Part shown: positions 31,115 to 63,487 of the stretch, one piece after another
How positions within the stretch are numbered: position 1 is the first letter of the stretch
Layout of the letters: each line of letters opens with the position of its first letter
Assembly (NCBI GenBank): GCA_016218765.1
Contig: JACRCZ010000118.1
Location: 1,772 to 65,771 of the forward strand
Length of the DNA stretch: 64,000 nt
Direction of reading: 5' to 3'
From: Deltaproteobacteria bacterium
Lineage (GTDB): Bacteria; Myxococcota_A; Polyangia; DRWM01; JAAZOP01
Notes under the pieces: generated by a model
Database searches by the model: none
What the model saw: the letters and a program-made list of their open reading frames with translations, nothing else
What the model was told of the DNA's origin: nothing
Made by a program: the position numbers and the translations under genes

Positions 31115-31290
31115 GGAGGGAGGGGGGGAGGGAAGGGGGGAACCACAGATGGACACAGATGGACACCGATAGGGAGGGAGGGGGGGAGGGAGGGGGGGAA
31201 CCACAGATGGACACAGATGGACACCGATAGGGGGGGAGGGGGGGAGGGAGGGGGGAACCACAGATGGACACAGATAGGGGGGGAGGGAAG
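31040..31290 (+). repeat. Family C repeat array: 4 units of [polypurine G/A tract + AACCACAGATGGACACAGATGRACACMGATAG], period about 58 nt
   Basis: Read directly. The core is about 40% GC in a roughly 70% GC genome. Other copies lie at 41476, 54589 and 56491. Confidence 0.9.
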
Positions 31291-39892: not shown

Positions 39893-41500
39893 GTGCCCGC
39901 CGCCTTCCTCACGGCTGCTCTCCTGGTTCTTGCCGCTCCCGGCGTGCTGTCGTCCCGTCTCGCCGCCCTTTTCGCCTGGGTCGCCTTCTTCCCGCTTCTC
40001 GTCCACCTCCCGAAGGTCACTCTGGTTCGCGCCGCGTTTCTCGGCTGGCTCGCCGGGGTCGTCACCACGTTGGGTGCCTGTGCCTGGTTTCCGGGTCTCC
40101 TCGCGCGTTTTTCCGGCCTTCATCCTCTGGTCTGCGTGCTGGTCGTCTTCGCCATTGCCGCGTGGCAGGCTGCCGGGTGGGCCGCGTGGGCCGTGCTGGT
40201 CCGGGTCGCGTCCGGCGCGGCGGGGTCCTCCGACGGTTCTCACCCGGGGATTCGTCGTCTGCGCGCCGCCCTGACGTTCGTGCTACCCGCCGCCGCTTTC
40301 GTCGTGTTCGAGCGCTGGCTCCCGGTGATTTTCCCTTCCTCGGTCGGCATCACGCAGTACCGCTTCCCGGTGCTCGCGCAGTCGGCGGAGCTTGGCGGGC
40401 CGTACGTGCCGGCATTCCTGTGCCTGTTGTTCTCCACGGTCCTGGCGCGCGCGTTTGCCGCGGCGCGTGGGTCGCGTGGTCTGCCCGGCGGCGCGATTTC
40501 CGGCTTCTTCGCCCTCCTGGTCGTTTTGCTCGTCTTCGGCCTGGTCCGGCTTCGCGGGATCGACCGCGAGCGCGGCGCGGCGCCGCGATTCCGCGTTGCC
40601 GCGGTGCAGGCCGGGGTGGTCAAGACCGGCTGGAACACCCCGCCCGACGACCCCCAGCGTCTCGGCCGCTACCAGCGTCTCTCGGCCGAGGCGGAGCGCG
40701 ACGCCCGCGCCGTCGACCTGCTGGTCTGGCCGGAGAAGGCCTATCCGTTCCCGCTCCGCAGCGACGCCCGCCACGACTATCGCCCGGACGACAAGCATCG
40801 CATCCGGCGTGGTTTCCGGTCTCCGCTCCTGTTCGGCGCGACGGCCGTCGATCCCATCTCCCGTCGGCTGTCCAACTCCGGCTTCCTTCTCCTGCCCGAC
40901 GGCGGGTTGCGCGACGTCTACGACAAGGTCCGGCTCATCTTCTACAGCGAGCGGTTTCCGTCCTGGCTTTCCTGGCTTGCCTCGCCGCGCACCGGGTATC
41001 TCCCGGGCTCGAAGTTCGATCCTGCTCCGGCCGCCGCGCCTCTCGCCGTCTTCATCTGTTTCGAGGCCACGTTCCCCGACCACGTGCGCGCGCTCGTGGC
41101 TCGTGGTGGCCGACTCCTGGTCAATCTCTCGGACGACTCGTGGTTCGGGGAATCGGCCGAGCCCGAGCAGCACCTGGCCCACGCGGTTTTCCGGGCGATC
41201 GAGTCCCGGCGCGACCTGGTGCGCGCGACGGGTTCGGGCGTCAGCGCGCACGTCTCCGCGGCGGGCGAGATTCTCGGGCGCACGCGCCTCAATCGCTATG
41301 CCTCGGAGGCCGACGTGGTCCTCGTGGCGGATGCCCGGCTCCTCGATCGCCGGAGCTTCTACGCCGCGTTGGGAGACGCATTCTGTTGGTTGTGCGTCGC
41401 GTTCGTGGTGACAGGCCTCGTCGTCACCCGTTGCCGCCTGCCGATCCTGCGGTCGTCCCGGCCCGATCGGGAAAGAGAAACCACAGATGGACACAGATAA
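39893..41500 (+). CDS. lnt: Apolipoprotein N-acyltransferase
   Basis: Polytopic N-terminus. CN-hydrolase triad context VWPE / YDKVRL / FICFE. GTG 39893 is a provisional start. The last residues (..ETTDGHR) and the TAA stop lie in a family C repeat. Confidence 0.85.
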   Translation: MPAAFLTAALLVLAAPGVLSSRLAALFAWVAFFPLLVHLPKVTLVRAAFLGWLAGVVTTLGACAWFPGLLARFSGLHPLVCVLVVFAIAAWQAAGWAAWAVLVRVASGAAGSSDGSHPGIRRLRAALTFVLPAAAFVVFERWLPVIFPSSVGITQYRFPVLAQSAELGGPYVPAFLCLLFSTVLARAFAAARGSRGLPGGAISGFFALLVVLLVFGLVRLRGIDRERGAAPRFRVAAVQAGVVKTGWNTPPDDPQRLGRYQRLSAEAERDARAVDLLVWPEKAYPFPLRSDARHDYRPDDKHRIRRGFRSPLLFGATAVDPISRRLSNSGFLLLPDGGLRDVYDKVRLIFYSERFPSWLSWLASPRTGYLPGSKFDPAPAAAPLAVFICFEATFPDHVRALVARGGRLLVNLSDDSWFGESAEPEQHLAHAVFRAIESRRDLVRATGSGVSAHVSAAGEILGRTRLNRYASEADVVLVADARLLDRRSFYAALGDAFCWLCVAFVVTGLVVTRCRLPILRSSRPDRERETTDGHR

Positions 41501-41510
41501 GCACAGATGG
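41476..41510 (+). repeat. Family C repeat, single unit
   Basis: GAAACCACAGATGGACACAGATAAGCACAGATGG. Confidence 0.85.
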
Positions 41511-45883: not shown

Positions 45884-48800
45884 TCAGTACGTTTCGGGGG
45901 AGTGCGAGAAGTTGTGGCACCGCAGGCGACACGACCGGCCGGTGCTGCTCCACGTCGGGTCGGCCGCGTCTCCCGCCGGTCCGGACACGCTCGGCGCGAA
46001 GTTCACCAGACGCTGGTACGTCCGGTCCGAGGCCCACCCTGAGGTCCGGTTGCCGTGGAGGTTGTAGTGGCACTCCTTGCACACGGCGTTGCCCTGTCCC
46101 GAGCGTCCGTTGTTGCGGACGTCGATGTCGCCGGCGACGCCGCCGCGCGGGTTCCCGTCGATGTTCCCCATGTGGAACCCGTGGAAGCGGAACGCGGTGT
46201 CGGTGCGCGTGCCGGTGCCCGTGGTGGCGAACGGGGCCGAGGCGTGGCAGATGAAGCAGAACTCGAAGTTCGCGCTGGCGTAGGCCGCGGTGGAGGAGAG
46301 GTGTTCGACGCGGTAGTTGGCGCGGAGGATCTTCGAGCTGAAGTTCGCGTCGGTGGTCCCCGCGTCGGAGCCGTGCGGTCCGGTCGGGATCGCGCCGGTG
46401 TACCCGCTGAGCAGGGACACGGTGCGCGGCATGTCGCTGCTTGCGTGGCAGTCGCTGCACCACAGGACGCTCGACGTGGTCAGGTGGGGCAGGCCCGTGC
46501 CGCCCGCGAGGCTCGCGGTCATCGTCGCCGCCGTGTTGCGGCCTGCTGCTTCCACCGGGTGGAACGACTCGTTGGCCGGATTGAACAGCACCGCCAGGTC
46601 CGCCGCCCCCGCCGGCAAGGCGGTCCACGACGAATGGCACTTGAAGCAGACCTGATATTCGGCGACCGGGGCGCCGGTCGGGTCGGAGGCCGGGACGTAG
46701 GTGTACGCCGGCGCTGCGCCCGCGGCGCCGTTGGTCACCCGGATGCGGCCGACGCCGAGGAGGCGGTTCGAGCTGGTGGTTCCCGCGGTGTTCCCGGCGC
46801 GTGCATAGTGCGGGTTGTGGCAGTCGACGCACTCGGCATGCCTGTTGTCCGTCGGCGTCGCGCCGTAGGCCGAGGACGTGCCCGCCTCGAACAGGTCGTG
46901 GCGTCCGGTCCGGGAGACGGGGTGGTTCGAGGCCTTGGCGAGCTGGCCCTGGATGTTGGTCGCCGCCGGAGCACCGTCGTGGCAGGTCAGGCAGGGCGGC
47001 TCCTCGCTGTCGTACAGCACCGTCCCGGACGAGCTGCCGTGACGCTCGTGGCACGTCGAGCAGTCGTAGCCCGAGGCGTTATGGCTCGCGGGCAGGGTCC
47101 AGTACGAGGCGACGCTCGTCGGGGTCTGTCCCGTGAAGTACGGCCCTGCGCTGCCGTCGTGGCACGTGCGGCACAGCCCGCTCGACCCGGTGGCGGCGAA
47201 GGACCAGGTGTCGGTCGTGTCGGGGTCGACGATGACTCGCGTGCCCGTCAGGTGCGGGGCGCTCGCGTGGCACTCGGCGCAATTGGCCCGGATCACCGTG
47301 TCGGTCCCTCCCAGCCGGTGGCTTGTCCGCGGGATCAATCCGGGGCGTTCGTGGCACTCGCTGCAGGCGATCGTGGTGTCGGTCCAGGTCGCGGCGTTGG
47401 CGAGGTCGGGCGTGTCGCCCGGCACGGGGTTGTGGCAGCCGACGGTGCAGGTCGGGTTGCCTGCGCCGTAGCTTTCCGCGGGGGTCCCGCCGTTGTTCAT
47501 GGTGGTCCCCGCCGGATAGCTCACGCCGCTGGCGAACACGAGGTCCACGTTGGGTTGCAGGACGATGCCTCCTCCCTCGTTGTGCGTCGGTCCCGACCCG
47601 TCGTGGCCGTGGCACACGGCGCACCCGTAGCCGAGGGTCGTGACGTGCGCCGCGTGCGCGCCGCCCCCGCCCGCGTAGTCCTGGGTGGCGGGCGCCGGCG
47701 GATTGCCGTGGCAGGCGTCGCAGCCGCCGCTCACGTCCAGCACTCCGTCGATGTGCCTGGTCCGGTCGACGAACCGGGTTCCGTCGTACACGGCACCGTG
47801 GCACGTCCCGCAGTCGGTGCGCGAGGCGTGGGGCGCGGGCGGGGGCACTCCGTGGCAGGTCCCGCAGGCGTCCTGGGTCCCGTCCACGGTGGTCCATTGC
47901 GGCGACGTGAGCGTCCCCCCCGCGGCGAGCGTTGCGCCGTGGCAGTACGTGGATGAGCACCGCGCGCCGTCGAACGCCGGCGCGGCGCCGCCCGCGGTGG
48001 ACAGCCCGCCCCACGCCAGCTCCCCGGGCCGGGGATCGATGTGGCCCGGCGACAGCGCGTCGGCCGGGACGACGTGGCAGTCCGAGCAGCTCATGTCGGC
48101 GCGCCAGGTGGAGCCGGTGGCCACGTGCGTGGTGTGGGCGCCCACGCCCCGCACCGTGGTGGACGCCGCTCCCGCGACGTCCTCCGGCGGCGCGCCGGTG
48201 AGGTCCGCGACGCCGCCGTGGCAGAACGTGCAGTCCGCGCGAAAGCCCGTGTGGCAGCTCTCGCACGAGACGCCCACGGTTCCGCCGAGCAGGTCCGCGC
48301 CGTGGCAGCTCGTGCAGGCCGACGGGCCGGCGTCGAAGGCCGTGCCGTGCTGCACCGGGGCGTCCCACCCTGCCGGGTGGTACGCCGTCACCTCGACCAC
48401 GCCGTCGACGTGCAGCGCCGGCGCGACGAAGGCGCCGCCTGCCCCGATCACGGTCGCGTGGCACAGCTCGCAGCGGGAATCCGTCGGGTGCGGTCCGCCC
48501 GGCGGGAGGCCGTGGCAGGTGCCGCACGCGTCCTGGGTGCCGTCCACGGTGGTCCATTGGGGCGTGGTGATCGTCCCGCCGGGGTCGAGCGTCGTGCCGT
48601 GGCAGTAGGTGCCCGAGCAGCGCGTGCCGTCGTACGCCGGCGCGGCGCCGTCCGCGGTCGTGAGCGGACCCCAGGCCAGGTCCGCGGGCAGCGATCCGTC
48701 CATGTGCCCGGCGTCGCTGACCGAGGTCGGCACGCGGTGGCACTCGCTGCAGCGGATCTCTCCGTGCCAGGTCGAGGGCCCGAGGTGGCTGCGGTGCGCG

Positions 48801-50707
48801 CCCACGCCGGGCAGCGAGGTCGAGGTGCCCCCGGTCGTATCCTGCGGCGGCGCGGCCGACCCGCCGCCGCCGTGGCAGCTCTCGCACCCGCCGTAGCTGA
48901 CGTCGACGATTCCGTTCACGTGCCGCGACGCGTCGACGAACGTCCGACCGGCGCCGACCACCTCGCCGTGGCACGATTCGCACCGCGTGTCGGACGGATG
49001 GGTCCCGCCGGGCGGCAGGCCGTGGCAGGTCCCGCACGCCGCCTGCGTCCCATCCACCGTCGTCCACGCGGGGGTCGTGAGCGTTCCCCCCGGCAGCAGC
49101 GTCGCTCCGTGGCAGTAGTTTTCCGCACAGGTCGCCCCGTCGAACGCCGGCATGGCGCCGTCCGCGGCCGGCAACGGACCCCAGGTCAGCTCCGCCGGCA
49201 GAGCGGTGTCGATGTGCCCGACGTCGGAAACCGCCGCCGGCACCCGGTGGCACTGGCTGCAGGCGATTTCGGCGTGCCAGGCCGAGGTCCCCAGGTGGCT
49301 CCGGTGGGCGCCCACGCCGCGCAGGGCGGTCCCGGTCCCCCCTGTCGTATCCTCCGGCGGTGCGGCCGACCCGCCGCCGCCGTGGCAGCTTTCGCAGTCG
49401 CCGTAGGTGACGTCGACGATCCCGTTCACGTGCCGCGTCCGGTCCACGAACCTCAACCCCGCGCCGATCACCTCCCCGTGGCACCGCTCGCACCGCGTGT
49501 CGGACGGGTGCGTGCCGTCCGGCGGGAGGCCGTGACAGGTCCCGCACGCGGCCTGCGAGCCGTCCACCGTCGTCCACGCCGGCTCCGTCAGGCTGCCGCC
49601 GGGGAGCAGGGTCGGGCCGTGACAGTAGGTTGACGAGCACCTTGTCCCGTCGAACGCCGGTACGGCGCCGTCCGCGGTCGCGACGCCGCCCCACTGCAGC
49701 TCCGCGGGCAGGGGGGTGTCCACGTGCCCGGGCGACCCCAGCGTCGCCGGCACCTGGTGGCATTCCGTACAGGCGATGTCCGCACGCCAGTCGGATGTCC
49801 GGAGGTGGCTGCCGTGGGCGCCCACGCCCCGCAGCGTCGTGGACGATCCGCCGGCGGTGTCGATTGGCGGCGCGGGAGACCCGCCTCCGCCGTGGCACGA
49901 CTCGCAGTCGAGCGGGTCGGATTCGACGACGCCGTCGATGTGCAGCCCGGGGGCGACGAACGTCATGCCCGGCCCCATGACCGCGCTGTGGCACTGCTCG
50001 CAGGCGGCCGAGGGCGGGTGTCCGCCGCCGGCAGGGAGGGCGTGACACGTCCCGCACGCGGCCTGCGTCCCGTCCACGGTGGTCCAGGCGGGGGTCGTGT
50101 TCGTGCCGCCCGGCAACAACGTCGCGCCGTGGCAGTAGGCCCCGGAACAGCGCATGCCGTCGAACGACGGCGCCGCGCCGTCGGCCGTCGCGATGGCGCT
50201 CCACGTCAGCTCCGCCGGCACATCCGTGTCGATGTGCCCGGGAGAGCGCAGCTCGGCCGGCACGATGTGGCAGTCCTCGCACTGCACCTCGCGATGCCAG
50301 CCCGACGTACCGAGATGGCTGCGGTGGGCGCCCACGGCGCGATCCGTCGTCGCGCTCTCGCCGTCCAGGCTTGCCGGCGGCGCGGCGCTGGACGAGTCCC
50401 CGTGGCAGGTGCCGCAGGGCAACGCCCCGCCGTCGCCGCCGTCCCCGCCGTCCCGGCCGTCCCCGCCGTCCGACCCGTCGCCCGTCTCATCACCGTCGTC
50501 CGTGCCATCCGGGTCGAATCCCCCGTCGTCCTCCCCGTCGGCCGCGGCGTCTTCCGTCCCCGAATCGCCGCCGGCGTCCCCGCCGCCGTCGATGTCGACC
50601 GCCGCGTCGTCCTCGGGCTCGTGGCCTCCTCCCTCGCCGCATCCCGCCGCCCACAGCCCCAGGATCGCGCCCAGGGTCGTCACCATCGCCGGTCCACGAT
50701 GCCTCAT
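45884..50707 (-). CDS. Giant multihaem c-type cytochrome lipoprotein (CxxxxCH...CxxCH repeat family)
   Basis: ATG at 50707. Lipobox LWAAGC. D/G-rich linker. My manual count gives about 34 CxxCH, 5 CxxxxCH and 2 CxxxCH motifs. Five 170-aa modules are present. Confidence 0.85.
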   Translation of the reverse strand: MRHRGPAMVTTLGAILGLWAAGCGEGGGHEPEDDAAVDIDGGGDAGGDSGTEDAAADGEDDGGFDPDGTDDGDETGDGSDGGDGRDGGDGGDGGALPCGTCHGDSSSAAPPASLDGESATTDRAVGAHRSHLGTSGWHREVQCEDCHIVPAELRSPGHIDTDVPAELTWSAIATADGAAPSFDGMRCSGAYCHGATLLPGGTNTTPAWTTVDGTQAACGTCHALPAGGGHPPSAACEQCHSAVMGPGMTFVAPGLHIDGVVESDPLDCESCHGGGGSPAPPIDTAGGSSTTLRGVGAHGSHLRTSDWRADIACTECHQVPATLGSPGHVDTPLPAELQWGGVATADGAVPAFDGTRCSSTYCHGPTLLPGGSLTEPAWTTVDGSQAACGTCHGLPPDGTHPSDTRCERCHGEVIGAGLRFVDRTRHVNGIVDVTYGDCESCHGGGGSAAPPEDTTGGTGTALRGVGAHRSHLGTSAWHAEIACSQCHRVPAAVSDVGHIDTALPAELTWGPLPAADGAMPAFDGATCAENYCHGATLLPGGTLTTPAWTTVDGTQAACGTCHGLPPGGTHPSDTRCESCHGEVVGAGRTFVDASRHVNGIVDVSYGGCESCHGGGGSAAPPQDTTGGTSTSLPGVGAHRSHLGPSTWHGEIRCSECHRVPTSVSDAGHMDGSLPADLAWGPLTTADGAAPAYDGTRCSGTYCHGTTLDPGGTITTPQWTTVDGTQDACGTCHGLPPGGPHPTDSRCELCHATVIGAGGAFVAPALHVDGVVEVTAYHPAGWDAPVQHGTAFDAGPSACTSCHGADLLGGTVGVSCESCHTGFRADCTFCHGGVADLTGAPPEDVAGAASTTVRGVGAHTTHVATGSTWRADMSCSDCHVVPADALSPGHIDPRPGELAWGGLSTAGGAAPAFDGARCSSTYCHGATLAAGGTLTSPQWTTVDGTQDACGTCHGVPPPAPHASRTDCGTCHGAVYDGTRFVDRTRHIDGVLDVSGGCDACHGNPPAPATQDYAGGGGAHAAHVTTLGYGCAVCHGHDGSGPTHNEGGGIVLQPNVDLVFASGVSYPAGTTMNNGGTPAESYGAGNPTCTVGCHNPVPGDTPDLANAATWTDTTIACSECHERPGLIPRTSHRLGGTDTVIRANCAECHASAPHLTGTRVIVDPDTTDTWSFAATGSSGLCRTCHDGSAGPYFTGQTPTSVASYWTLPASHNASGYDCSTCHERHGSSSGTVLYDSEEPPCLTCHDGAPAATNIQGQLAKASNHPVSRTGRHDLFEAGTSSAYGATPTDNRHAECVDCHNPHYARAGNTAGTTSSNRLLGVGRIRVTNGAAGAAPAYTYVPASDPTGAPVAEYQVCFKCHSSWTALPAGAADLAVLFNPANESFHPVEAAGRNTAATMTASLAGGTGLPHLTTSSVLWCSDCHASSDMPRTVSLLSGYTGAIPTGPHGSDAGTTDANFSSKILRANYRVEHLSSTAAYASANFEFCFICHASAPFATTGTGTRTDTAFRFHGFHMGNIDGNPRGGVAGDIDVRNNGRSGQGNAVCKECHYNLHGNRTSGWASDRTYQRLVNFAPSVSGPAGDAADPTWSSTGRSCRLRCHNFSHSPETY

Positions 50708-50810
50708 GTCGAACCCACCCTCCCCCCCCCCGGGAGATCGGCACACGATTCCATATCGGATGTCTTGCCCGATGCGCGCTCTTTCTGAGCGAGATGCTTG
50801 CCCGACGGTT

Positions 50811-52279: not shown

Positions 52280-53410
52280 GTGAGCATCTGGCGCACCGCC
52301 AGGAACCGGGGGAAGTCCGAAACGCCGCGTACCGGTCCAACCAAGGCCCAGACCTACTGCGCCTACTGCCCGAAGCTCTGCCGTTTCGTCTGTCCGGTCT
52401 CCGCCGTCCAGGCGCGCGAGACGGTCACGCCATGGGGCAAGCAGACGGTGCTGCACGAGCTGGTCCGCCAGACTCTCCCGTTGGACGAGTCCGCCGCGCT
52501 CCCGCTGTGGGCCTGTCTCGAATGCCACGGCTGCCGCACGTACTGCGACCACGGCATCGAGGTCCCCGCTTCGCTGCGCGCGGGCCGCGTCCTCGCCTGG
52601 AGCCACCAGGTCGCGCCCAAGCCCGCTGCGGCGCTGGTCCACGGTTTTTCCGAACGCCAGCGTCGCATGCAGCTCAACGTCGCCGCGCTCGCCGCCGGCC
52701 GCGCCGTCTCCGCCGAGACGAAGCTGGCGTTGTTCCCCGGGTGCAAGGCGTGCATCGACCGTCCCCGCGAAGTTGCCGCGGCCCTGCGCGTGCTGGACGT
52801 CGGCCCCAACGGTCGCGCAGCGCTCGTCGCCGACTACTGCTGCGGGCTGCCCTTGCTCCAGGCGGGGGATCGCGACGGCTTCCTGGCGGCGGCGCGGCGG
52901 GTCCGGCGTGCGCTCTCCGGCATCCCGTTCACCGTGGTCCCCGACCCCGGCTGTTTGCATGCCCTGCGCGTGCTCTACGTCGAAGCCGGCGTGACGATCG
53001 ATACCCGGCTGCTGCACCTCTCCGAGGCCGTTCTTCCCGTGCTGGGCCGCTTCCGCAAGCTGTCGCTTGGCGGACCGGCGTTCTACCACGACCCTTGCCA
53101 CCTCGGGCGGGATCTGGGCATCTACGACGCCCCGCGCGACGTCCTCTCCCGCGTCCTGGGCGAGGGCATCGAGGAATTCCCGCGCAACCGGGAGAAGGCC
53201 GACTGCTGCGGCGGCGGCGGCGCGGTCCCGGAGGTCTATCCCGACACCGCGGTCGCGGTCGCCCGCCGCAGGCTCGAGCCTCTTGGTCAGCCCGAAGGCA
53301 CCCGCACCGTGGTCACCGCCTGCCCGTCCTGCCGGGAAATGCTCGCTTCCGCGGGTTCCGGCTGGCAGGTGAAGGACATGATCGAGCTGCTCGACGAGGC
53401 CCTCCTGTGA
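52280..53410 (+). CDS. (Fe-S)-binding oxidoreductase with 2 x [4Fe-4S] motifs and 2 x CCG domains (GlcF/LutA/HdrD-like)
   Basis: CAYCPKLCRFVCP, CLECHGCRTYC, CCGLP and CCGGGG motifs. The GTG 52280 start is provisional. Confidence 0.8.
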   Translation: MSIWRTARNRGKSETPRTGPTKAQTYCAYCPKLCRFVCPVSAVQARETVTPWGKQTVLHELVRQTLPLDESAALPLWACLECHGCRTYCDHGIEVPASLRAGRVLAWSHQVAPKPAAALVHGFSERQRRMQLNVAALAAGRAVSAETKLALFPGCKACIDRPREVAAALRVLDVGPNGRAALVADYCCGLPLLQAGDRDGFLAAARRVRRALSGIPFTVVPDPGCLHALRVLYVEAGVTIDTRLLHLSEAVLPVLGRFRKLSLGGPAFYHDPCHLGRDLGIYDAPRDVLSRVLGEGIEEFPRNREKADCCGGGGAVPEVYPDTAVAVARRRLEPLGQPEGTRTVVTACPSCREMLASAGSGWQVKDMIELLDEALL

Positions 53411-53454
53411 CACGTAGTCGCCGGCCCGCGCGTCCCGAAGCCTGCCCCCCACTA

Positions 53455-53521
53455 CCGAACCGCGCCCTTCAGGGCGCGGCGCCGTGCGGACCTCAGCCGC
53501 GGGCTGAAGCCCGCGGTTCGG
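53455..53521 (+). repeat. Family D structured repeat, second copy
   Basis: CCGCGCCC-TTCA-GGGCGCGG and CCGCGGGC-TGAA-GCCCGCGG flanked by CCGAACC / GGTTCGG. Confidence 0.85.
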
Positions 53522-53553
53522 ATCCCGGAACCGATAACCAAGAACCAATAACC

Positions 53554-54588
53554 GATGACTCCCTCCCCCTCTCCCGTCGCCGGTTCCTCGGCGCCGCCGC
53601 CGCTCCCTTGATCCTCCCCGTCCTCCCGGTCCTCGGCTGCAAGCCCTCCGAGGGCCACGCCGGCACGCGCAACGGCAAGGACGACCCCGACGCCGTCGTG
53701 CCCGATAACTCCGGCGGTCCGCGCGTCGCGCTCGCCGCCGATCCCGGCGTCGTCGATTCCCGCAATCGTGTCGATGGCGTCAAGGAGTTGATGTCGAGGG
53801 CCCTCGGCGGCGCCGGCGACGGCGAGCCGGGCGACTTCCTCCAGAAGCTGTTCCACGAGGACGAGCGGATCGGCATCAAGGTCAACACGCTTGCCGGGCG
53901 CGGCATGTCCACGTCGGTCGATGTGGTCGAGGCGCTGGTGGCCGAGCTTCGCGCGGCGGGCCGCGGCGGGCGGGGCATCATCGTCTTCGACCGCCTGAAG
54001 CAGGAGCTGGTGGACGTCGGCTACCCCTCCGGCCAGGCAGCCCGCGACCGCGGCTACCGCGTGCAGGGCACGGACGAGGCCGGCTACTCGCGCGAGCTGT
54101 ACGTGGCAGGGCGCGTCGGCAGTCTCCTCTCGGAAGTCTTCCTCGGGGTGGATGCGCTCATCACCGTCGGCGTGGTCAAGGACCACGACCTCGCGGGCGT
54201 CGGCGGTTGCACCAAGAATCTCTTCGGCCTCATCCACAACCCCAACCGCTACCACGACCACAACTGCGATCCCTACCTGGCGGACGTCCTGGGCCTGGAC
54301 GAGGTCAAGAAGCGCCTGCGCCTGGCCGTGGCCGACGGTCTCACGGCGGAGTGGCACGGCGGCCCGGCGTACGTCCGCGCCAACACCTGGTCGCTGGGGA
54401 CGATCGTCGCGTCCCCCGACTCCCTCGCCCTGGACGCTGTTCTGGCCGACATCATCGACGCCAAGCGCAAGGAGCAGGGTCTTCCGACTCTCGCCGAGGC
54501 CGACCGTGCTCCGCGCTGGCTCGACACGGCGGCCTCCCGCGGCCTGGGCGTCGTCGATCTGGATGCCATCCGCCGAGTCGAGAAATAG
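53554..54588 (+). CDS. DUF362-domain protein with a Tat-type leader and lipobox; start codon unresolved
   Basis: SRRRFLGAAAAPLILPVLPVLGC. DUF362-like core (IGIKVN.., VKDHDLAGV..). No canonical in-frame start lies upstream of the RR motif. ATG 53555 is one base out of frame. Confidence 0.7.
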   Translation, partial: DDSLPLSRRRFLGAAAAPLILPVLPVLGCKPSEGHAGTRNGKDDPDAVVPDNSGGPRVALAADPGVVDSRNRVDGVKELMSRALGGAGDGEPGDFLQKLFHEDERIGIKVNTLAGRGMSTSVDVVEALVAELRAAGRGGRGIIVFDRLKQELVDVGYPSGQAARDRGYRVQGTDEAGYSRELYVAGRVGSLLSEVFLGVDALITVGVVKDHDLAGVGGCTKNLFGLIHNPNRYHDHNCDPYLADVLGLDEVKKRLRLAVADGLTAEWHGGPAYVRANTWSLGTIVASPDSLALDAVLADIIDAKRKEQGLPTLAEADRAPRWLDTAASRGLGVVDLDAIRRVEK

Positions 54589-54735
54589 AAACCACAGATG
54601 AACACAGATAAACACAGATGGGGAAGGGGGACCGGGTCCGGCTCAAAATGAAACCACAGATGGACACAGATAGACACAGATGGGGAAGGGGGACCGGGTC
54701 CGGCTCCGATGACCGAAAACCGAAAACCGAAAACT
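54589..54735 (+). repeat. Family C repeat, 2 units (period 61 nt), plus a (CCGAAAA)n tail
   Basis: GAAACCACAGATGRACACAGATARACACAGATGGGGAAGGGGGACCGGGTCCGGCTC x2, followed by GACCGAAAACCGAAAACCGAAAAC. Confidence 0.9.
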
Positions 54736-55856
54736 GCCCCGTCCCGGCGCGTCGGGCGTTTCTCCGTAGCTGCACCGCCGCCGCTTGCGCGCTGGCGGCC
54801 ACGCGCGCCCGTCGGGCGCTCGGGCAGGAAGCCGAGGTCGTGGTGCCCGAGCCGCACGAGGCGAAGCACTGGGAGAAGCTTGCGGACAACAAGGTCCGCT
54901 GCCTGCTCTGTCCGCGGCGCTGCGAGGTCGCGGATCGCGAGCGCGGGACGTGCGGGGTGCGCGAGAACCGCGGCGGCGAGTACCGGACGCTCGTCTGGGG
55001 CCGCGTGTGTTCGGAGAACATCGACCCGATCGAGAAGAAGCCGCTCTTCCATTACCGGCCCGGCACCGATGCCTACTCGTTGGCGGCGCCCGGCTGCAAC
55101 ATCGAGTGTCTGTTCTGCCAGAACTGGGAGATTTCGCAATTCCGTCCCGAGCAGATCGAGACCTGGGAGCGCTCGCCCGCCGACGTCGCGTCTCTCTGCG
55201 CCGAGCGTGCCATCCCGACCATTGCGCTCACCTACTCCGAGCCTGTCGTCTGGTGGGAGTACGGGCGGGACATCGCGGTGGCGGCGAAGGAGCGGGGTGT
55301 CGGCACGGTGGTGGTGTCCAACGGCTACATCGAGGAGCAGCCGTTGCACGAATGGTGCGACGTCGTCTCGGCGATCAAGATCGACTTCAAGGCGTTCACG
55401 CAGCGTTTCTACCGCGACACGTGCTCCGGGGATCTGGGCCCGGTGCTCGATACGCTCGGGCGGATCAAGGATGCCGGGGTGTGGCTCGAGCTGGTGATGC
55501 TGGTCGTGCCCACGCTCAACGACGACGAGGCCGAGGTCCGGGCGATGGCGAAATGGATCAACCAGCGTCTGGGTCCGGACGTCCCGATCCATTTCACGCG
55601 TTTCCACCCCATGTACAAGCTGACGAACCTCGAGCCCACGCCGGTCGATACTCTTGAGAAGTGCCGCGACATCGCGCTCGCCGAGGGCCTCCATTTCGTC
55701 TATCTCGGCAACGTCCCGCGCCATCCCGGGGAGAACACGTATTGTCCCCGCTCCGGCGAGATCCTCATCGAGCGCGCCGGGTACACCATCCTCGAGAACC
55801 GCATCGTCGGCGGCAAGTGCCCCTGCTGCGACCAGTCCGTGCCGGGCGTGTGGTGA
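54660..55856 (+). CDS. AmmeMemoRadiSam-system radical SAM enzyme with a twin-arginine-like leader
   Basis: CNIECLFCQNWEIS (Cx3Cx2C). PFL-activase-like fold pattern. C-terminal CPxxG..CPCC. Leader PARRAFLRSCTAAACALAATRA. The candidate ATGs (54618, 54648, 54660) all lie in repeat DNA. Confidence 0.85.
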   Translation: MDTDRHRWGRGTGSGSDDRKPKTENCPVPARRAFLRSCTAAACALAATRARRALGQEAEVVVPEPHEAKHWEKLADNKVRCLLCPRRCEVADRERGTCGVRENRGGEYRTLVWGRVCSENIDPIEKKPLFHYRPGTDAYSLAAPGCNIECLFCQNWEISQFRPEQIETWERSPADVASLCAERAIPTIALTYSEPVVWWEYGRDIAVAAKERGVGTVVVSNGYIEEQPLHEWCDVVSAIKIDFKAFTQRFYRDTCSGDLGPVLDTLGRIKDAGVWLELVMLVVPTLNDDEAEVRAMAKWINQRLGPDVPIHFTRFHPMYKLTNLEPTPVDTLEKCRDIALAEGLHFVYLGNVPRHPGENTYCPRSGEILIERAGYTILENRIVGGKCPCCDQSVPGVW

Positions 55857-55902
55857 GAGGGGGCTGGTGGCGGGTGGTGGGGTGCCGGGCAGGTGGTGAG
55901 GC

Positions 55903-56436
55903 ATGAACGGCATGCAGGGCATTGGCCGGGTTCGCGCCGCGTGGAGCCTTGCGCTGTCGGTCTGGGTCGCGGGCTGCGGAGCGGCGGGCGGGTCGAGCGA
56001 CACGGACCAAGCGTACTGGGCGGACCAGGGGGACCCGTTCGTCTTCGGGTGGCTCCGCGCGTCGGAGGTGGAGCCTCTGGACCGGACACCGGCGGCGGCG
56101 GAGGTTTGTCCCGAGCAGGCGGCGCGAGCGGATTGCCGGATGCGCGTCCGGACGACGGTTCCGTGCAGCGGCGCCTGCTGGTCGCCGGAGGATCTCGCGG
56201 CGCGAACCGCGTGGATCTGCATCTGTGATCTGTGCGCCGGCGACGGCGACTGCACCGAGGGCCCGGGCGGGACCTGCGTCCTTCTTCCCGGCGACACGTG
56301 CGACGAGGATCGCCGGCTCTGCCTCTACGCGGGCGAGACGTGCCACGACGCGGCGTCGTGCTCCGACGGGCTCGCCCGCTGCATGCACCGCAACGGCCGT
56401 GCGGTCTGCGCCGAGCCCGCCGCGCCCCCGCCGTAG
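55903..56436 (+). CDS. Cys-rich lipoprotein, function unknown
   Basis: Signal MNGMQGIGRVRAAWSLALSVWVAGC. About 17 Cys residues after the lipobox. Confidence 0.6.
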   Translation: MNGMQGIGRVRAAWSLALSVWVAGCGAAGGSSDTDQAYWADQGDPFVFGWLRASEVEPLDRTPAAAEVCPEQAARADCRMRVRTTVPCSGACWSPEDLAARTAWICICDLCAGDGDCTEGPGGTCVLLPGDTCDEDRRLCLYAGETCHDAASCSDGLARCMHRNGRAVCAEPAAPPP

Positions 56437-56490
56437 TTTCGGCCCGGGCGGCCATGACGGGTGGCTTGTACGAAGCCGGGGCCGGACAGG

Positions 56491-56527
56491 AGGGGGAAGC
56501 CACAGATGAACACAGATGAACACAGAT
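56491..56527 (+). repeat. Family C repeat, single unit
   Basis: GGGGGAAGCCACAGATGAACACAGATGAACACAGAT. Confidence 0.85.
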
Positions 56528-56676
56528 TCCGGTCAGGGGAACGACCTGGACCTATGCAATGCACCCGGCCATGACGCGACGCGTGACGCGGCGATGGGGC
56601 CTGAGGCAGGGGGCGGGTGCTGGACGCGAGCCGGATCGGGGGTTAGCCTGTGCGATCGGGATGGAGGGAATCGGAC

Positions 56677-57432
56677 ATGCGTGAGCGGGTGGCGCGCGAC
56701 ACGAGCCGGATCGCGATCGTGCTGGTTGCCGGCGTCTTGGGACTCGCCGGCGTCGCGGCCTGCGGCGGTGTGGCGGAGGAACCCGACGTCGTCGCCTCGG
56801 ACGGTGACGGGAGCGAAACCGCGGCGGACGTCACGTTCGACGACGCCCGCGCGGACGCCGACGCGGACGCCGACTCCGACGCCGACTTGCCCGCTGAAGC
56901 GGATGCAGAAGCGGCCGTGGAGGTCGACGTACCCGCGGAGGCCGACGTACCCGCGGAGGCCGACGTACCCGCGGAGGCCGACGCCGACGTCGTCGACTCG
57001 GTCGACACTCACGATGCCGTCGACATCGTCGAGGTCATCGACGTTCCGGAGGCCGGCGATGTCGTGGAGGTGGTCGACGTTCCCGATGTGGGAGATGCGC
57101 TCGACGTTCCCGACGGCGTCGAGTGTCGGACGACGGACGACTGCATGTTGGGCCTGACCTGTTGTTCGGGGCGCTGCGCGAACCTGTACAACGATCCGAA
57201 GAACTGCTCCGGGTGCGGTTCGGCCTGCCCCGAGTCCGCGCCGTTCTGCGCGGGGGGCGCTTGCATCGAGATCCCGTGCGAGGGGGTGGACTGCGTGGGC
57301 GAGCAGTTCTGCTGCGGCGTTGTCTGCTGCCGTCCCGGGCAGATCTGTTGCAGCGTGGATGGTCCGGGACCGTCGTTCGGTCCCGGCTGCTACGACCTGT
57401 TCTGCCCGGGCGGCTGCCCGTTGTGCGGGTAG
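56677..57432 (+). CDS. Acidic lipoprotein with a Stig1-like Cys-rich C-terminal domain
   Basis: RBS GGAGGG. Lipobox GVAAC. (VPAEAD)n and D/V-rich linker. CCSGRCANLYNDPKNCSGCGSAC motif. Confidence 0.65.
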   Translation: MRERVARDTSRIAIVLVAGVLGLAGVAACGGVAEEPDVVASDGDGSETAADVTFDDARADADADADSDADLPAEADAEAAVEVDVPAEADVPAEADVPAEADADVVDSVDTHDAVDIVEVIDVPEAGDVVEVVDVPDVGDALDVPDGVECRTTDDCMLGLTCCSGRCANLYNDPKNCSGCGSACPESAPFCAGGACIEIPCEGVDCVGEQFCCGVVCCRPGQICCSVDGPGPSFGPGCYDLFCPGGCPLCG

Positions 57433-57595
57433 GGCCGCACCGGGTGATTCGCCGCGGTCGTCACCCCCCACCGTCCCGACCAACAATTCGACCCGATCGA
57501 CCCACCAACGCCCCGAAGGGACTCGGCGGCTCGGGCGCCGAGCACCACTTATCAAAAACTTGCCCGCCCTCCGCTTCCACCCTTACCCTCGCCCC

Positions 57596-57811
57596 ATGAC
57601 CACACGCATGACCGCAGCCGAAATCCAGTTCGCCTACCCCGACGAGTGGGTCGTCGCCACCGATCTCCCAGCCCCCCACGCCGCCCTGCCCCGCGAAGGC
57701 GTCGTCGTCTTCCACTCCCCCAACCGCAGCGCCGCCCTCAACGCCTTCGGCGCCGCTCCCAAGCCCGCCGCCCTGTGGTACGTCGCTCCCCCCGCCCTTC
57801 CAAACCAATAA
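57596..57811 (+). CDS. Hypothetical 71-aa protein
   Basis: High GC3 but no clear RBS. The stop lies in a family G repeat. Confidence 0.3.
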   Translation: MTTRMTAAEIQFAYPDEWVVATDLPAPHAALPREGVVVFHSPNRSAALNAFGAAPKPAALWYVAPPALPNQ

Positions 57812-57880
57812 CTCGTCCCGTTCGTCCCACTCCCCCCGTTCGACCCACCAACTACTCAACCCGATCGACCCACCCCCCCT
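57801..57880. repeat. Family G low-complexity repeat (ACCAATAACTCGTCCCGTTCGTCCC..CGACCCACC)
   Basis: 24 of 26 nt match the copy at 58891. Related copies lie at 57463..57512 and inside rsmB. Confidence 0.75.
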
Positions 57881-57881
57881 C

Positions 57882-58790
57882 CTACGGGCACACCCCGTCC
57901 ATATCGATGCACACCACGCCGTAAATCCCCACCTCGCAGCAGACCTCGCCGGCCGGACAGAAGTCGCACGCCCCGCACGTCGTGCACCCCACCGCCGGCT
58001 CATAGTCCTCGCAGTTCCCGTCGATGCAGAGCTGGTCCCGGTTGCACGTGTCCCCGCAGCTCCCGCAGTGCCGCACGTCCGTCGCGTAGTCCACGCACGC
58101 ACCGCGGCACAGGTCCAGGGTGCACTCCGCCCCGGGCACGCACGCACCGCTGACGCACGCCTGCCCGCACGCCCCGTCGCACGACCCGCAGTGATCCCGA
58201 TCGGCCTGCAGGTCCACGCAGCCGTCCACGCACGGCGACAGCCCGGGCCGGCACGCGCACAGGCCGTCCGCGCACACTTCCAGGTCGTCGCACCGCACGT
58301 CGCACCCGCCGCAGTTCTCCGCGTCCGCCGACGCGTCCCGGCACTCCCCCGCGCAGTCGACGTACCCCGCGGGACACGACCCCGTTCCCCCGCAAACCCC
58401 CGCCACGCACTCCTCGCCCGTCCCGCACCCGTTGTCGCACCCCCCGCAGTGCGCCGCGCTCGACGACACGTCCACGCACTCCGCCCCGCACAAGAGCAGC
58501 GGCGCCGCGCACTCCGCGCCCCCGTCCCCGTCGATTTCCGCGTCCGCCTCTTCCCCTCCGTCCGCCTCCTCCGTGCCGTCCCCATCCCCCGCGCCGTCCC
58601 CTTCCCCCATCCCGTCCCCGTCGCCGACGGCGTCCCCATCGCCGCCCGCGTCGTCGCCGGACACGTCGCCCACGACGTCCCCATCGACCCCGTCGCCCGT
58701 CACCTCCGCGTCCAGGTCGCTTCCTCCCCCGCCCCCTCCGCAGCCCAGCGCAAACAACACGACGACCACCCACGCCCGGTTCTGCAACAT
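57882..58790 (-). CDS. Acidic lipoprotein with repeated CGGC/CGSC Stig1-like Cys modules
   Basis: ATG at 58790, 5 nt after GGAGG. Lipobox FALGC. G/D-rich linker. Five or more C..C.D...D..(H/N)CG(G/S)C modules. Confidence 0.7.
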   Translation of the reverse strand: MLQNRAWVVVVLFALGCGGGGGGSDLDAEVTGDGVDGDVVGDVSGDDAGGDGDAVGDGDGMGEGDGAGDGDGTEEADGGEEADAEIDGDGGAECAAPLLLCGAECVDVSSSAAHCGGCDNGCGTGEECVAGVCGGTGSCPAGYVDCAGECRDASADAENCGGCDVRCDDLEVCADGLCACRPGLSPCVDGCVDLQADRDHCGSCDGACGQACVSGACVPGAECTLDLCRGACVDYATDVRHCGSCGDTCNRDQLCIDGNCEDYEPAVGCTTCGACDFCPAGEVCCEVGIYGVVCIDMDGVCP

Positions 58791-58890
58791 GTGAACCTCC
58801 ACGGACGGCGACGCGCCGCCCCGCCACCATCCGCTTGCCGCGACCACTCGGAATCTTACGCCGCCCCCGGGATCGTCGCTCCCCCCTCCC

Positions 58891-58993
58891 CTCCGGACCA
58901 ATGACTCGTCCCGTTCGCCCCACCAACGACTCGATCCAGGACGACCCACTCAGCCCAGGACGACCCACTCGTCCCCGGACGACCCACTCATCC
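58891..58993. repeat. Family G repeat plus a 3 x 19-nt tandem (CAGGACGACCCACTCNNCC)
   Basis: Tandem copies at about 58937, 58956 and 58975. The third copy contains the stop codon of the Memo-AMMECR1 gene. Confidence 0.8.
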
Positions 58994-60574
58994 CAGAAGA
59001 TCCACCAGCTCCTCCCCCCACACCACCGCCCGGAACCGCTGGATCCGCGTCGCCTCGTCCCGCCAACATCCCGTCGGCAATCCCGCCTTCCGGCACGTGC
59101 CGTCCAGGAACTGCTCCCGCGACCACCCCTGCTCCTCCGGCACCTGCGGCAGCAGGAGTCCCCGCCGTCCGCCCCGCGAGATGATCAGCCCGTCCCTTCC
59201 CACGACGATCGTCGTCGGATCCGTCACCGCCTCCGGCGGCGTCAGGACCGAGATCTCGTACGACAGCTCCCCCAACTCCCGCACCGACACCGGATCGAAG
59301 CGCGGATCCTCCACGGCCGCCGAACGCGCCACCTGTGCCACGCACCGGTACAGCGGGTCGTACGCCTCCACCATTCCGATGCATCCCCGCAGATCCCCGT
59401 GGGCCTTGAGCGTCACGAACGCCGCGCCGTCCCGTCGCAGCGCCTCAGACTCCGGCAGCGCCGGCTCGTACGACTCCCCTCGCACCGCCGCCGCCACCGC
59501 CGCCTTCGCGACGTCCATGAGCGCCTGCCGCTCTTCCCGCGTGTACATCCCGACCTCCCCTCCCCCGCTCGCCGCCTCCTCCCGGACCAGCGCCAACGCC
59601 CCGTACCCCACGACCCGCCCCCGCTCCCCCGTCACGTCGCCGCTGTTCGCGTACCGCAAGCGTTCGACTTTCGCCCCTTCCGGCGACAGCGCCAGCAGCG
59701 CACCCAACGCCACCCGCACCGGGTTGTACCCGCACATCCCGCTCTGCCCTTGCCCCGTGCGGTCGAACGTCTCCAGGTCGAGCGCCGCCAGCGCAGCCAG
59801 GTTCTCCTCGTCGTACGCCGTCGCCTCCTCGTACGTGAAGAAGTGCGACATGTCCGACGACGCCACAATCGCCACGTCGGCATGCTCGCGCACCACTCCT
59901 GCGATCGCCTGTCCCAGTCGCTCCAGCTCGTTCAGCGGCGTGTCGCCCACGATGACCGGCACCGCCGCCACCCCGGGCAACGCCACCTGCAGGAACGGCA
60001 ACTGAACTTCCAGCGCGTGCTCGCGCTCGAACGCCCGCGAGTCCACCACGATGTCGCCGCCCGCCGCTTCCACCAGCTCCGCCTGCAGCGCCGTATCCAC
60101 CCGCACGACCCCGAGCGGCGTCTGGTACCCGTCCTCCGCCAGCACCGCTCCCCCCGTGAACGGGTAGTGGTGGCTCGGCGCCAGCACGATCACGGTCGCG
60201 ATGGGCCCGACCTCGAAGTCCTTCCTCTCCGCCGCGGCCAGATAGCCTTCGACGCCCGCCCGCAGCGTCGCCGGATCGGCCGGGTAGAACCCCCCCGCCT
60301 GCTGCGCCGGGAAGATCGACACCGCCTCCCCTTCTGCGTGACCCGCGCCTGCGCCCTCGAGCTGCTTCCAAGCGAAGCCCGCCACGGCGCCCGAGTACTC
60401 GTACCCCGCGTGCGGCGAGATGATCCCGACCAGTCGAGCCCGCGCTGGACCTGCGGAGGAGCCGGTGTCTTCCCGCCCTTCCCGCTCTTCCCGCACTCCC
60501 TTCCGGCAGGTCGCCCCCAGCGCCAGGAGCGCACACGCCGCCAGCCCCACACTGCGCATGCCGGCTCGTCCCAT
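58988..60574 (-). CDS. Fused AmmeMemoRadiSam proteins B (Memo-like) and A (AMMECR1-like) with an N-terminal signal peptide
   Basis: RBS GGGAGAA. Signal MGRAGMRSVGLAACALLALGATC. Memo motifs PHAGYEYSG, AGGFYP, APSHH, EHALEVQLPFL and SSDMSH. AMMECR1 motifs LRGCIG and LLPQV. Confidence 0.85.
   Translation of the reverse strand: MGRAGMRSVGLAACALLALGATCRKGVREEREGREDTGSSAGPARARLVGIISPHAGYEYSGAVAGFAWKQLEGAGAGHAEGEAVSIFPAQQAGGFYPADPATLRAGVEGYLAAAERKDFEVGPIATVIVLAPSHHYPFTGGAVLAEDGYQTPLGVVRVDTALQAELVEAAGGDIVVDSRAFEREHALEVQLPFLQVALPGVAAVPVIVGDTPLNELERLGQAIAGVVREHADVAIVASSDMSHFFTYEEATAYDEENLAALAALDLETFDRTGQGQSGMCGYNPVRVALGALLALSPEGAKVERLRYANSGDVTGERGRVVGYGALALVREEAASGGGEVGMYTREERQALMDVAKAAVAAAVRGESYEPALPESEALRRDGAAFVTLKAHGDLRGCIGMVEAYDPLYRCVAQVARSAAVEDPRFDPVSVRELGELSYEISVLTPPEAVTDPTTIVVGRDGLIISRGGRRGLLLPQVPEEQGWSREQFLDGTCRKAGLPTGCWRDEATRIQRFRAVVWGEELVDLLG

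Positions 60575-63415: not shown

Positions 63416-63487
<72 letters not shown>

Follow-up and report, generated by a model that had tools for sequence, protein, structure and literature searches.

Whether the enzymes of an AmmeMemoRadiSam system, made up of an AMMECR1 homologue, a Memo homologue and a radical S-adenosylmethionine (SAM) enzyme, can be directed out of the cytoplasm is the question raised by a locus in a 64,000-nt stretch of contig JACRCZ010000118.1 from a Deltaproteobacteria bacterium (the window; G+C content ~70%). Conservation of Memo and AMMECR1 extends from archaea to humans, and both are tied to human disease; we know of no biochemical function for either, and the chief genomic hint at their role is the bacterial trio that they form with the radical SAM enzyme. 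In the window, the gene for the radical SAM enzyme and a gene encoding Memo and AMMECR1 as one protein are convergent and lie 3131 nt apart. A first examination of this DNA from its letters alone (the sequence-only reading) had named the three families and proposed that the set is exported. Profile hidden Markov models (HMMs) bear out all three assignments, at scores far above the curated cutoffs: 360.1 bits for the radical SAM enzyme against TIGR04337 (cutoff 220; residues 82–412 of the open reading frame (ORF) at 54618–55856), 207.5 bits for the Memo domain against TIGR04336 (protein B; cutoff 26), with 157.2 bits against Pfam Memo, and 180.3 bits for the AMMECR1 domain against TIGR04335 (protein A; cutoff 99). 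From the leader sequences described below and their conservation, we lean with moderate confidence towards a locus that encodes an envelope-directed variant of the system, its set of proteins being truly targeted beyond the cytoplasm.

The radical SAM enzyme is annotated by NCBI as MBI5501793 (398 aa, from ATG 54660) and contains the motif CNIECLFC, an N-terminal Cx2Cx3C...C auxiliary motif and a C-terminal Cys ribbon. Counted from this ATG, the twin arginines of the predicted twin-arginine translocation (Tat)-type leader are R31 and R32, in frame. The TIGR04337 model begins only at residue 82 of the long ORF, leaving the leader outside the model, and GTG 54840/54843, 6–7 residues ahead of the model start, offers a possible leaderless start. 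The twin-arginine-like leader noticed in the sequence-only reading nevertheless recurs widely, with [ST]RRx[FL]L found in frame in 109 of the 120 best homologues (54–80% identical). The motif is followed there by an Ala/Gly/Cys-rich stretch and usually by A-x-A and then Q-D, and both arginines are at least 90% invariant (alignment A1). The window proteins were used as queries against 86 related loci from more than 12 phyla (L numbers below), and most radical SAM genes of these loci carry the twin-arginine leader, with a few KR or RK variants. The loci with leaders include Acidobacteriota, Planctomycetota, Verrucomicrobiota, Caldithrix, KSB1, Aminicenantes, Latescibacterota, Eisenbacteria, Poribacteria, Lentisphaerae, Kiritimatiellae, Thermodesulfobacteriota and others. 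Very hydrophobic N-termini are found in Omnitrophota and Elusimicrobia, and a leader of any kind is missing in two loci only. Over 67 leader codons, comparison with the closest relative (L092) gave 10, 8 and 26 changes at codon positions 1, 2 and 3, of which 19 are synonymous; this third-position bias is the signature of a translated region. The sequence-only reading had allowed for true start codons downstream of the leaders, and in-frame conservation and codon-position bias together contradict this, including a start of the radical SAM gene at GTG 54840/54843. A frameshift at ATG 54709 was also considered and ruled out, as the 'DRKPKTEN' frame is kept in a database homologue (P0001) and in L092 and ATG 54660 is in frame.

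The product of the gene directly upstream belongs to the DUF362 family (71.2 bits against PF04015). Its twin-arginine region, SRRRFLGAAAAPLILPVLPVLGC, includes SRRRFL encoded at 53572–53589 and is followed by the lipobox VLGC (Cys codon 53638–53640). No ATG, GTG or TTG lies directly 5' of the twin-arginine motif, and the only in-frame starts in the window are GTG 53407, which overlaps the stop codon of the preceding gene for a CCG-domain Fe-S protein, and TTG 53608. The Prokaryotic Genome Annotation Pipeline (PGAP) starts the protein at TTG 53608 (MBI5501792, 326 aa), inside the hydrophobic (h) region, and so cuts off the twin-arginine motif. The Tat/lipobox DUF362 protein and the CCG Fe-S architecture described upstream of the radical SAM gene in the sequence-only reading are both present, then, with the twin-arginine motif of the former lost in the PGAP start. 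In two relatives, L091 (VSDDLSRREFLG...) and L092 (MKLSRRQFLGTTAAPLLLPILPIIGC; MKLSRRQFLG...IIGC), the DUF362 start likewise overlaps the CCG stop, and GTG 53407 is the probable true start in the window. The leader of the window protein is lengthened by an in-frame, stop-free insertion of ~138 nt, absent from L091 and L092, that contains two strong hairpins at 53455–53521 (inverted repeat I5; fold −46.5 kcal/mol, z = −2.2). A frameshift or an ATA start, suggested by the out-of-frame ATG 53555 and by ATA 53548, which lines up with the GTG start of L091, was dropped as an explanation, GTG 53407 being in frame.

Among 119 DUF362 homologues, 87 have the twin arginines within the first 45 residues. 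The DUF362 gene stands directly upstream of the radical SAM gene in 40 of the 86 loci (Acidobacteriota, Planctomycetota, Caldithrix, KSB1, Aminicenantes, Eisenbacteria, Poribacteria and 'delta proteobacteria'), with gaps of 1–11 nt where genes were called. This frequency makes DUF362 a conserved fourth component of the system, and the DUF362 and radical SAM genes form an operon. An AlphaFold2 (AF2) model of the DUF362 protein (predicted local distance difference test score (pLDDT) 93.4) has LarA-family nickel-pincer racemases as its best fold matches in the PDB (E values 7e-5 to 8e-4, query-normalised TM scores 0.36–0.49, ~13% identity). A sequence search against solved structures gave no match and yielded no alignment to a solved LarA. 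DUF362 and LarA families are placed in one Pfam clan, CL0471 (PMC11770544), and DUF362 domains also occur in clearly extracellular CBM9–dockerin architectures (PMC5742341). The mature protein has three Cys residues, one of them invariant, and no Fe-S motif; with so few, it shows no obvious sign of carrying electrons through Fe-S clusters.

That Memo and AMMECR1 are fused in a 528-aa ORF with a signal-like start was confirmed. The fusion begins MGRAGMRSVGLAACALLALGATC, with a predicted Sec/lipoprotein-type signal encoded at 60506–60574, the Memo domain at ~59591–60442 and the AMMECR1 domain at ~59021–59524; the database protein P0121 is identical to it. A Sec or lipoprotein signal-like hydrophobic N-terminus, often ...GCSERRP, was found in 102 of 120 homologous fusions. 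Among the fusions in the related loci, 36 of 40 have a hydrophobic N-terminus before AGxFYP, several with clear lipoboxes, and in alignment the Cys of the GATC box in the window protein falls on the Cys of orthologous lipoboxes (LGVAC, VGCSERRP). Compared with L090, 24 of the initial 25 signal residues are identical, and the linker after them is fully diverged. The fusion adjoins the radical SAM gene in ~40 of the 86 loci at a strict threshold, and with looser clustering a Memo or AMMECR1 homologue lies within 6 kb of it in 69 of the 86. The first two Memo blocks are swapped in the window protein, PHAGYxYSG preceding AGGFYP and Gly/Ala-rich linkers joining them (60100–60440, minus strand; residues ~45–135). 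Of the 120 homologues, 14 share this order; they are the 15 closest save one, which is truncated at its N-terminus. AlphaFold models the swapped block with high confidence and keeps the Memo fold; the model as a whole (pLDDT 91.4) matches PH0010 (TMt 0.84) and MEMO1 (TMt 0.71).

Judged by these comparisons, the leaders of the radical SAM enzyme, Memo–AMMECR1 and DUF362 are genuine coding sequence and not ORF artefacts. The conserved core consists of DUF362, the radical SAM enzyme and Memo–AMMECR1, that is, four domains in three proteins. Its predicted targeting sequences are conserved across phyla, Tat-type on DUF362 and the radical SAM enzyme and Sec/lipoprotein-type on Memo–AMMECR1. The impression that the set looks exported is upheld to this extent: the radical SAM twin arginines, the Memo–AMMECR1 signal and the Tat-type DUF362 protein recur together across phyla, and none of the three findings that the sequence-only reading had named as refuting its proposal was obtained. 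In the arrangement that we favour, the radical SAM enzyme would acquire its Fe-S clusters in the cytoplasm and then be exported folded by Tat. DUF362, with its LarA-like fold and probably loaded with a cofactor, would also leave by Tat and be lipid-anchored. Memo–AMMECR1 would cross by Sec, to be either anchored at the outer face of the inner membrane or released there, and the three proteins would act jointly on an envelope or periplasmic substrate. Joint action in that compartment would mean that the substrate is not nucleic acid.

Several observations weigh against envelope targeting. The Tat-signal HMM TIGR01409 (cutoff 16.7 bits) scores the window leaders below its cutoff, at 13.6 bits for the radical SAM enzyme (motif ARRAFLRS...ALG/Q) and 15.8 bits for DUF362 (motif SRRRFLG...VLGC); orthologous leaders reached 20.7, 20.2 and 16.6 bits. 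The GATC box of Memo–AMMECR1 has T at −1 and is not a canonical lipobox. The targeting signals do not always travel together: in the Omnitrophota loci L079 and L086 the radical SAM enzyme is leaderless, with a lipoprotein signal on the Memo–AMMECR1 of L086, and in the Thermodesulfobacteriota loci L076 and L080 a radical SAM enzyme with a twin-arginine leader stands beside a stand-alone, signal-less AMMECR1. Some relatives have very hydrophobic, Sec- or transmembrane-like radical SAM N-termini with no twin arginines, which are hard to square with export of a folded Fe-S protein. To our knowledge, neither free SAM nor a low-potential reductant is available outside the cytoplasm, and CCG-domain proteins characterised to date all face the cytoplasm. 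Given the first of these, a single turnover with co-exported SAM, or SAM regenerated as a cofactor, is the most plausible form that exported radical SAM chemistry could take. In the lineage of the window, the signal-less CCG protein could act before export or ride along as a Tat 'hitchhiker'.

To place the exported-type enzyme within its family, the 150 nearest representatives at 50% identity were surveyed, drawn from 1383 proteins with E ≤ 1e-30. No leader was found in 89 of these, including ~15 single-chain radical SAM–AMMECR1–Memo fusions, and at least 29, those closest to the window protein, have twin-arginine leaders. The Tat-type form is, on these counts, a sizeable clade within a mostly cytoplasmic family, and the cytoplasmic single-chain triple fusions indicate that the radical SAM, AMMECR1 and Memo activities work in one compartment. 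One representative is a transmembrane-anchored radical SAM–Memo–AMMECR1 triple fusion, whose flanking charges suggest a domain on the cytoplasmic side.

Membrane proteins recur beside the core in other genomes. A fused MFS/spermidine-synthase-like membrane protein of ~700–870 aa (NF037959, PF01564) adjoins the radical SAM or Memo–AMMECR1 gene in 47 of the 86 loci, and its SAM-type domain comes out on the periplasmic side in a crude positive-inside analysis. Membrane polyferredoxins that are NapH+NapG-like or NosR-like (FMN_bind+Fer4_5) lie in the same operons in 10 loci, and in 3 of the 150 representatives a NosR/NapH-like polyferredoxin is fused to the radical SAM domain through a transmembrane helix. 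DUF6599 lipoproteins co-occur in 10 of the loci. No MFS/spermidine-synthase protein, NapGH/NosR-like polyferredoxin or DUF6599 lipoprotein is encoded in the window. In the lineages that have them, the adjacent polyferredoxins could deliver electrons, and a SAM-type molecule may be what the MFS/spermidine-synthase protein handles; electrons at the quinol level would need energy coupling to reduce a radical SAM cluster. Catalysis by the radical SAM enzyme outside the cytoplasm is, for us, a tentative proposition that we incline to doubt. Equally speculative is the broader form of this idea, in which the whole clade would act extracytoplasmically on electrons from NapGH/NosR-like conduits and its radical SAM enzyme would set the first precedent for Tat export and for activity in the periplasm. 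SAM might then conceivably be carried along, be regenerated, or, as SAM or decarboxylated SAM, be supplied by the MFS/spermidine-synthase neighbour.

The SAM and electron problem would disappear altogether if the radical SAM chemistry took place in the cytoplasm, either ahead of targeting or in the course of it, and acted on a partner such as the DUF362 cofactor or the polypeptide chain of Memo–AMMECR1 or of DUF362. The Tat leader would then merely couple the radical SAM enzyme to the export of its partner or to the membrane, and outside the cytoplasm the enzyme would be inactive or structural. Such an order of events is known from anSME and QhpD, radical SAM enzymes that modify proteins in the cytoplasm ahead of their export. 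It would also suit the translational coupling of the signal-less CCG protein within the operon, the leaderless radical SAM enzyme alongside an exported-type Memo–AMMECR1 in L086, and the signal-less AMMECR1 of L076 and L080. We nevertheless consider export-coupled maturation of this kind unlikely. Twin arginines and a cleavable-looking A-x-A have been kept over many phyla, which would be costly without a role after export, and periplasm-directed NapGH/NosR-like conduits are adjacent or even fused. Memo–AMMECR1, moreover, has a Sec-type signal, would fold only after export and could not serve as a folded cytoplasmic partner.

Less probable still is that the leaders are uncleaved membrane anchors, so that the shared feature would be attachment to either face of the membrane and not a soluble periplasmic state, with a membrane lipid or isoprenoid as the substrate. 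Relatives whose very hydrophobic N-termini lack twin arginines would fit this, as would the anchored triple fusion with its apparently cytoplasmic domain, the MFS/spermidine-synthase membrane protein adjacent in so many loci, and the integral membrane proteins encoded downstream of the radical SAM gene in L091 and L089. Memo contexts were reportedly tied to isoprenoid modification in the abstract of Burroughs et al. (2019). The h-regions of the twin-arginine leaders, however, are weakly hydrophobic (Kyte–Doolittle 1.2–2.0 over 12 aa), too weakly for stable anchors and as is usual for Tat signals, and A-x-A closes many of the leaders. Even a twin-arginine signal anchor would still put the domain outside the cytoplasm.

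The interval between the radical SAM and Memo–AMMECR1 genes holds three acidic, Cys-rich lipoproteins with canonical lipoboxes (16, 23 and 41 Cys residues in lipoproteins 1, 2 and 3; isoelectric points 4.0–4.5) and a 71-aa ORF (orf71), as had been described, with the Stig1-like assignment holding for lipoprotein 3 only (NF041328, 163.7 bits, cutoff 100; PF04885, 63.7 bits, cutoff 24.1). Lipoprotein 2 reached 20.8 bits against PF04885, below the 24.1 cutoff, and lipoprotein 1 gave no match. The sequence-only reading had named these lipoproteins as candidate substrates of the system and suggested that DUF362 and the CCG protein could form its electron route. Physical interleaving of the lipoprotein genes in the window speaks for this, as do the Kazal-like Cys-rich lipoprotein that occupies the same slot in L001/L002 and a 1209-aa Cys-rich lipoprotein after the radical SAM gene of L004. 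We regard it as very improbable. Lipoproteins 1–3 have no homologue in any of the 86 loci, the closest relatives (L092/L090, L091 and L087) being without them, and lipobox ORFs number at least 14 in the window, among them several Cys-rich ones far from the locus. DUF362 lacks Fe-S ligands and has a LarA-like fold. The CCG protein (MBI5501791; 70.2 bits against PF02754 in two stretches, with Fer4_8) has no signal peptide, scores below cutoff against all NCBIfam equivalogs of the HdrD/GlpC/DsrK type (best 84 vs 530 bits) and, among the related loci, is confined to those of near relatives of the window (L001, L002, L091 and L092), in whose lineage its gene is translationally coupled to DUF362. 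Of the neighbours whose co-occurrence the earlier proposal depended on, DUF362 is conserved, the lipoproteins are found in none of the 86 loci and the CCG protein is found only in near relatives.

The slot itself is variable. It is empty in L087 and holds two integral membrane proteins in L091 and in L089. In L092/L090, which are one contig (GCA_016218815.1), ~28 kb of toxin and defence genes (Tox-GHH, Wadjet JetABC, SbcCD) separate the radical SAM from the Memo–AMMECR1 gene, which marks the interval as an insertion hotspot. BREX-type BrxL/PglZ genes were seen in L092 on the opposite flank of the CCG–DUF362–radical SAM block. The variable slot and the abundance of lipoproteins throughout the window point to local cargo as the origin of the candidate substrates and of part of the proposed electron route. 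orf71 is a real conserved gene with a 76% identical homologue in L090 only, where it stands beside Memo–AMMECR1 without the radical SAM block. On the other side of the locus, a 1620-aa lipoprotein with dozens of CXXCH motifs is encoded at 45884–50746 (minus strand; cytochrome c7/c3, Geobacter C4xC–C2xCH and MtrC-like matches), followed by a Cys-rich vWA/CglB-like lipoprotein at 50811 to about 52100 (minus strand). Relative to L092, these two genes are an insertion between RsmB-side genes and the CCG gene. Both were dropped as parts of the system, the RsmB gene directly preceding the CCG gene in L092. The CglB-like and MXAN_6577-like proteins of the window indicate a Myxococcota affiliation. 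On the strength of these locus comparisons, the Cys-rich lipoproteins, orf71, the multihaem cytochrome and the vWA protein are best described as unrelated variable cargo.

Repeats have also entered the locus. A dispersed repeat of ~58–62 nt, with the core CACAGATGRACACAGAT and then a G-rich tail, has 15 core matches in the window against ~0 expected, at 31086–31275, 41482–41508, 54593–54681 and 56501–56527, with as many as four copies in tandem. Every copy lies on the plus strand, just past the 3' end of a plus-strand gene. The repeat provides the in-frame radical SAM start codons ATG 54618, 54648 and 54660 (MDTDRHRWG...), and in L092 it is also found upstream of the radical SAM gene, giving the annotated start (MNTDEHRWG...). 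A role for the 62-nt repeat as a structured RNA was dropped (z-scores ~+0.7). Both insertions (138 nt; 2 x 62 nt) leave the frame open through the leaders from an upstream start, and relatives without either have DUF362–radical SAM gaps of 8–11 nt and canonical starts upstream of the twin-arginine motif. A C-rich repeat family with ACTCGTCCCGTTCGYCCCAC and GACGACCCACTC units was seen at 57441–57505, 57766–57888 and 58859–58996; its members flank orf71, lie downstream of the minus-strand lipoprotein 3 and Memo–AMMECR1 genes, and may mark the boundaries of inserted cargo.

We give almost no credence to the leaders being annotation or ORF artefacts of an ordinary cytoplasmic system with true starts at GTG 54840/54843 and TTG 53608, for despite the nearness of the former to the TIGR04337 model, the choice of the latter by PGAP and the origin of the radical SAM ATGs in a dispersed repeat, the twin arginines and leader architecture are conserved in frame across phyla, leader substitutions favour the third codon position, and close relatives without the insertions start canonically upstream of the motif.

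The features of the locus are collected in Table 1. Beyond the Memo–AMMECR1 gene, infC and thrS come next, and a tRNA gene lies just 3' of thrS (63416–63487, minus strand; Rfam RF00005, 67.4 bits). Rfam, promoter and terminator scans of the locus region gave nothing relevant.

Table 1. Features of the AmmeMemoRadiSam locus in the window, with examples of membrane-protein neighbours from related loci
Feature	Position	Strand	Basis or remark
CCG/HdrD-like Fe-S protein, 2x[4Fe-4S] motifs and 2 CCG domains	52280..53410	+	PF02754, Fer4_8
DUF362 protein, twin-arginine motif and lipobox Cys	53407..54588	+	PF04015; probable start GTG 53407
Hairpin-bearing insertion in n-region of DUF362 leader	53411..53547	+	comparison with L091 and L092
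Two tandem 62-nt repeat copies between DUF362 and radical SAM genes	54583..54706	+	dispersed repeat
AmmeMemoRadiSam radical SAM enzyme, 398 aa	54660..55856	+	TIGR04337
Predicted Tat-type leader of radical SAM enzyme	54660-54824	+	RR at 54750-54755; ends ...RARRALG/QE
Variable cargo between radical SAM and Memo–AMMECR1 genes	55903..58790	mixed	contents of the slot differ among related loci
Lipoprotein 1, acidic, Cys-rich	55903-56436	+	lipobox VAGC
Lipoprotein 2, acidic, Cys-rich	56677-57432	+	lipobox VAAC
orf71, 71 aa	57596-57811	+	conserved in L090
Lipoprotein 3, MXAN_6577/Stig1-like, acidic, Cys-rich	57882-58790	-	lipobox ALGC; NF041328, PF04885
Memo–AMMECR1 fusion, 528 aa	58988..60574	-	TIGR04336, TIGR04335
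MFS/spermidine-synthase examples	L019:12685-15093; L044:11117-13255	-; +	carriers within L006-L086
Polyferredoxin examples	L019:6359-8050; L079:8149-10005		also P0384, P0393, P0396

Compared with known systems, the locus agrees with the AmmeMemoRadiSam trio in that the three families score above cutoff and are clustered, with a CxxCxxxC...C motif and a core like that of pyruvate formate-lyase (PFL) activase in the radical SAM enzyme. It differs in the fusion of Memo to AMMECR1 with a signal, the Tat-type leader of the radical SAM enzyme and the Tat-type DUF362 protein as a fourth component; the window lineage further shows the swap of the first two Memo blocks and the addition of a CCG Fe-S protein. 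With PFL activating enzyme and other glycyl-radical activases the enzyme shares the CX3CX2C radical SAM core, and its closest solved structure by sequence is 3c8f (E = 7.6e-5). It scores far below the activase cutoffs, however (43.7 bits against TIGR02493, cutoff 231.75; 45.5 bits against TIGR02494, cutoff 174.35), and carries additional Cys motifs at both termini; the genes examined in the window and in the related loci included no glycyl-radical enzyme.

Tat-exported Fe-S and cofactor enzymes (DmsAB, FdnGH, NiFe hydrogenase subunits and NapG) resemble the predicted leaders in RRxFLK, a Cys/Ala/Gly-rich h-region and A-x-A, and likewise have Fe-S-loaded cargo, next to which a signal-less Fe-S protein could be co-exported as a 'hitchhiker'. 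The likeness is weak in score (the window leader reaches 16.4 bits against the formate-dehydrogenase model TIGR02811, far below the cutoff of 48.45), the cargo here is a radical SAM enzyme, and hitchhiking by the CCG protein is pure conjecture. The LarA family provides the best fold matches to the DUF362 model and belongs to the same Pfam clan, and differs in the low identity and TM scores, the lack of a sequence match and the absence of larB, larC or larE among the genes seen in the window. NapGH/NosR polyferredoxins, which pass electrons to enzymes of the periplasm, are linked to the system in operons and fusions elsewhere but are absent from the window.

In the literature, no Tat-tagged, periplasmic or exported radical SAM enzyme was found, nor was a link to DUF362, and on AmmeMemoRadiSam itself there was little beyond mentions of the name. 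Burroughs et al. (2019), in JBC, is reportedly the most relevant earlier analysis of Memo–AMMECR1–radical SAM contexts and may already note signal peptides. The genes of the locus were already annotated by family name. For annotation, the consequence is immediate, as the PGAP start of DUF362 hides the Tat motif.

If the envelope-targeted version of the system is real, it would call into question whether radical SAM chemistry is, as has been assumed, limited to the cytoplasm. It would also restrict the substrates of the family to molecules that are present outside the cytoplasm as well, and DUF362, with its LarA-like fold, would join the system as a fourth partner. Should the system in addition prove active in the periplasm, the substrate of Memo and AMMECR1 would be an envelope lipid, an isoprenoid or a protein, rather than a nucleic acid.

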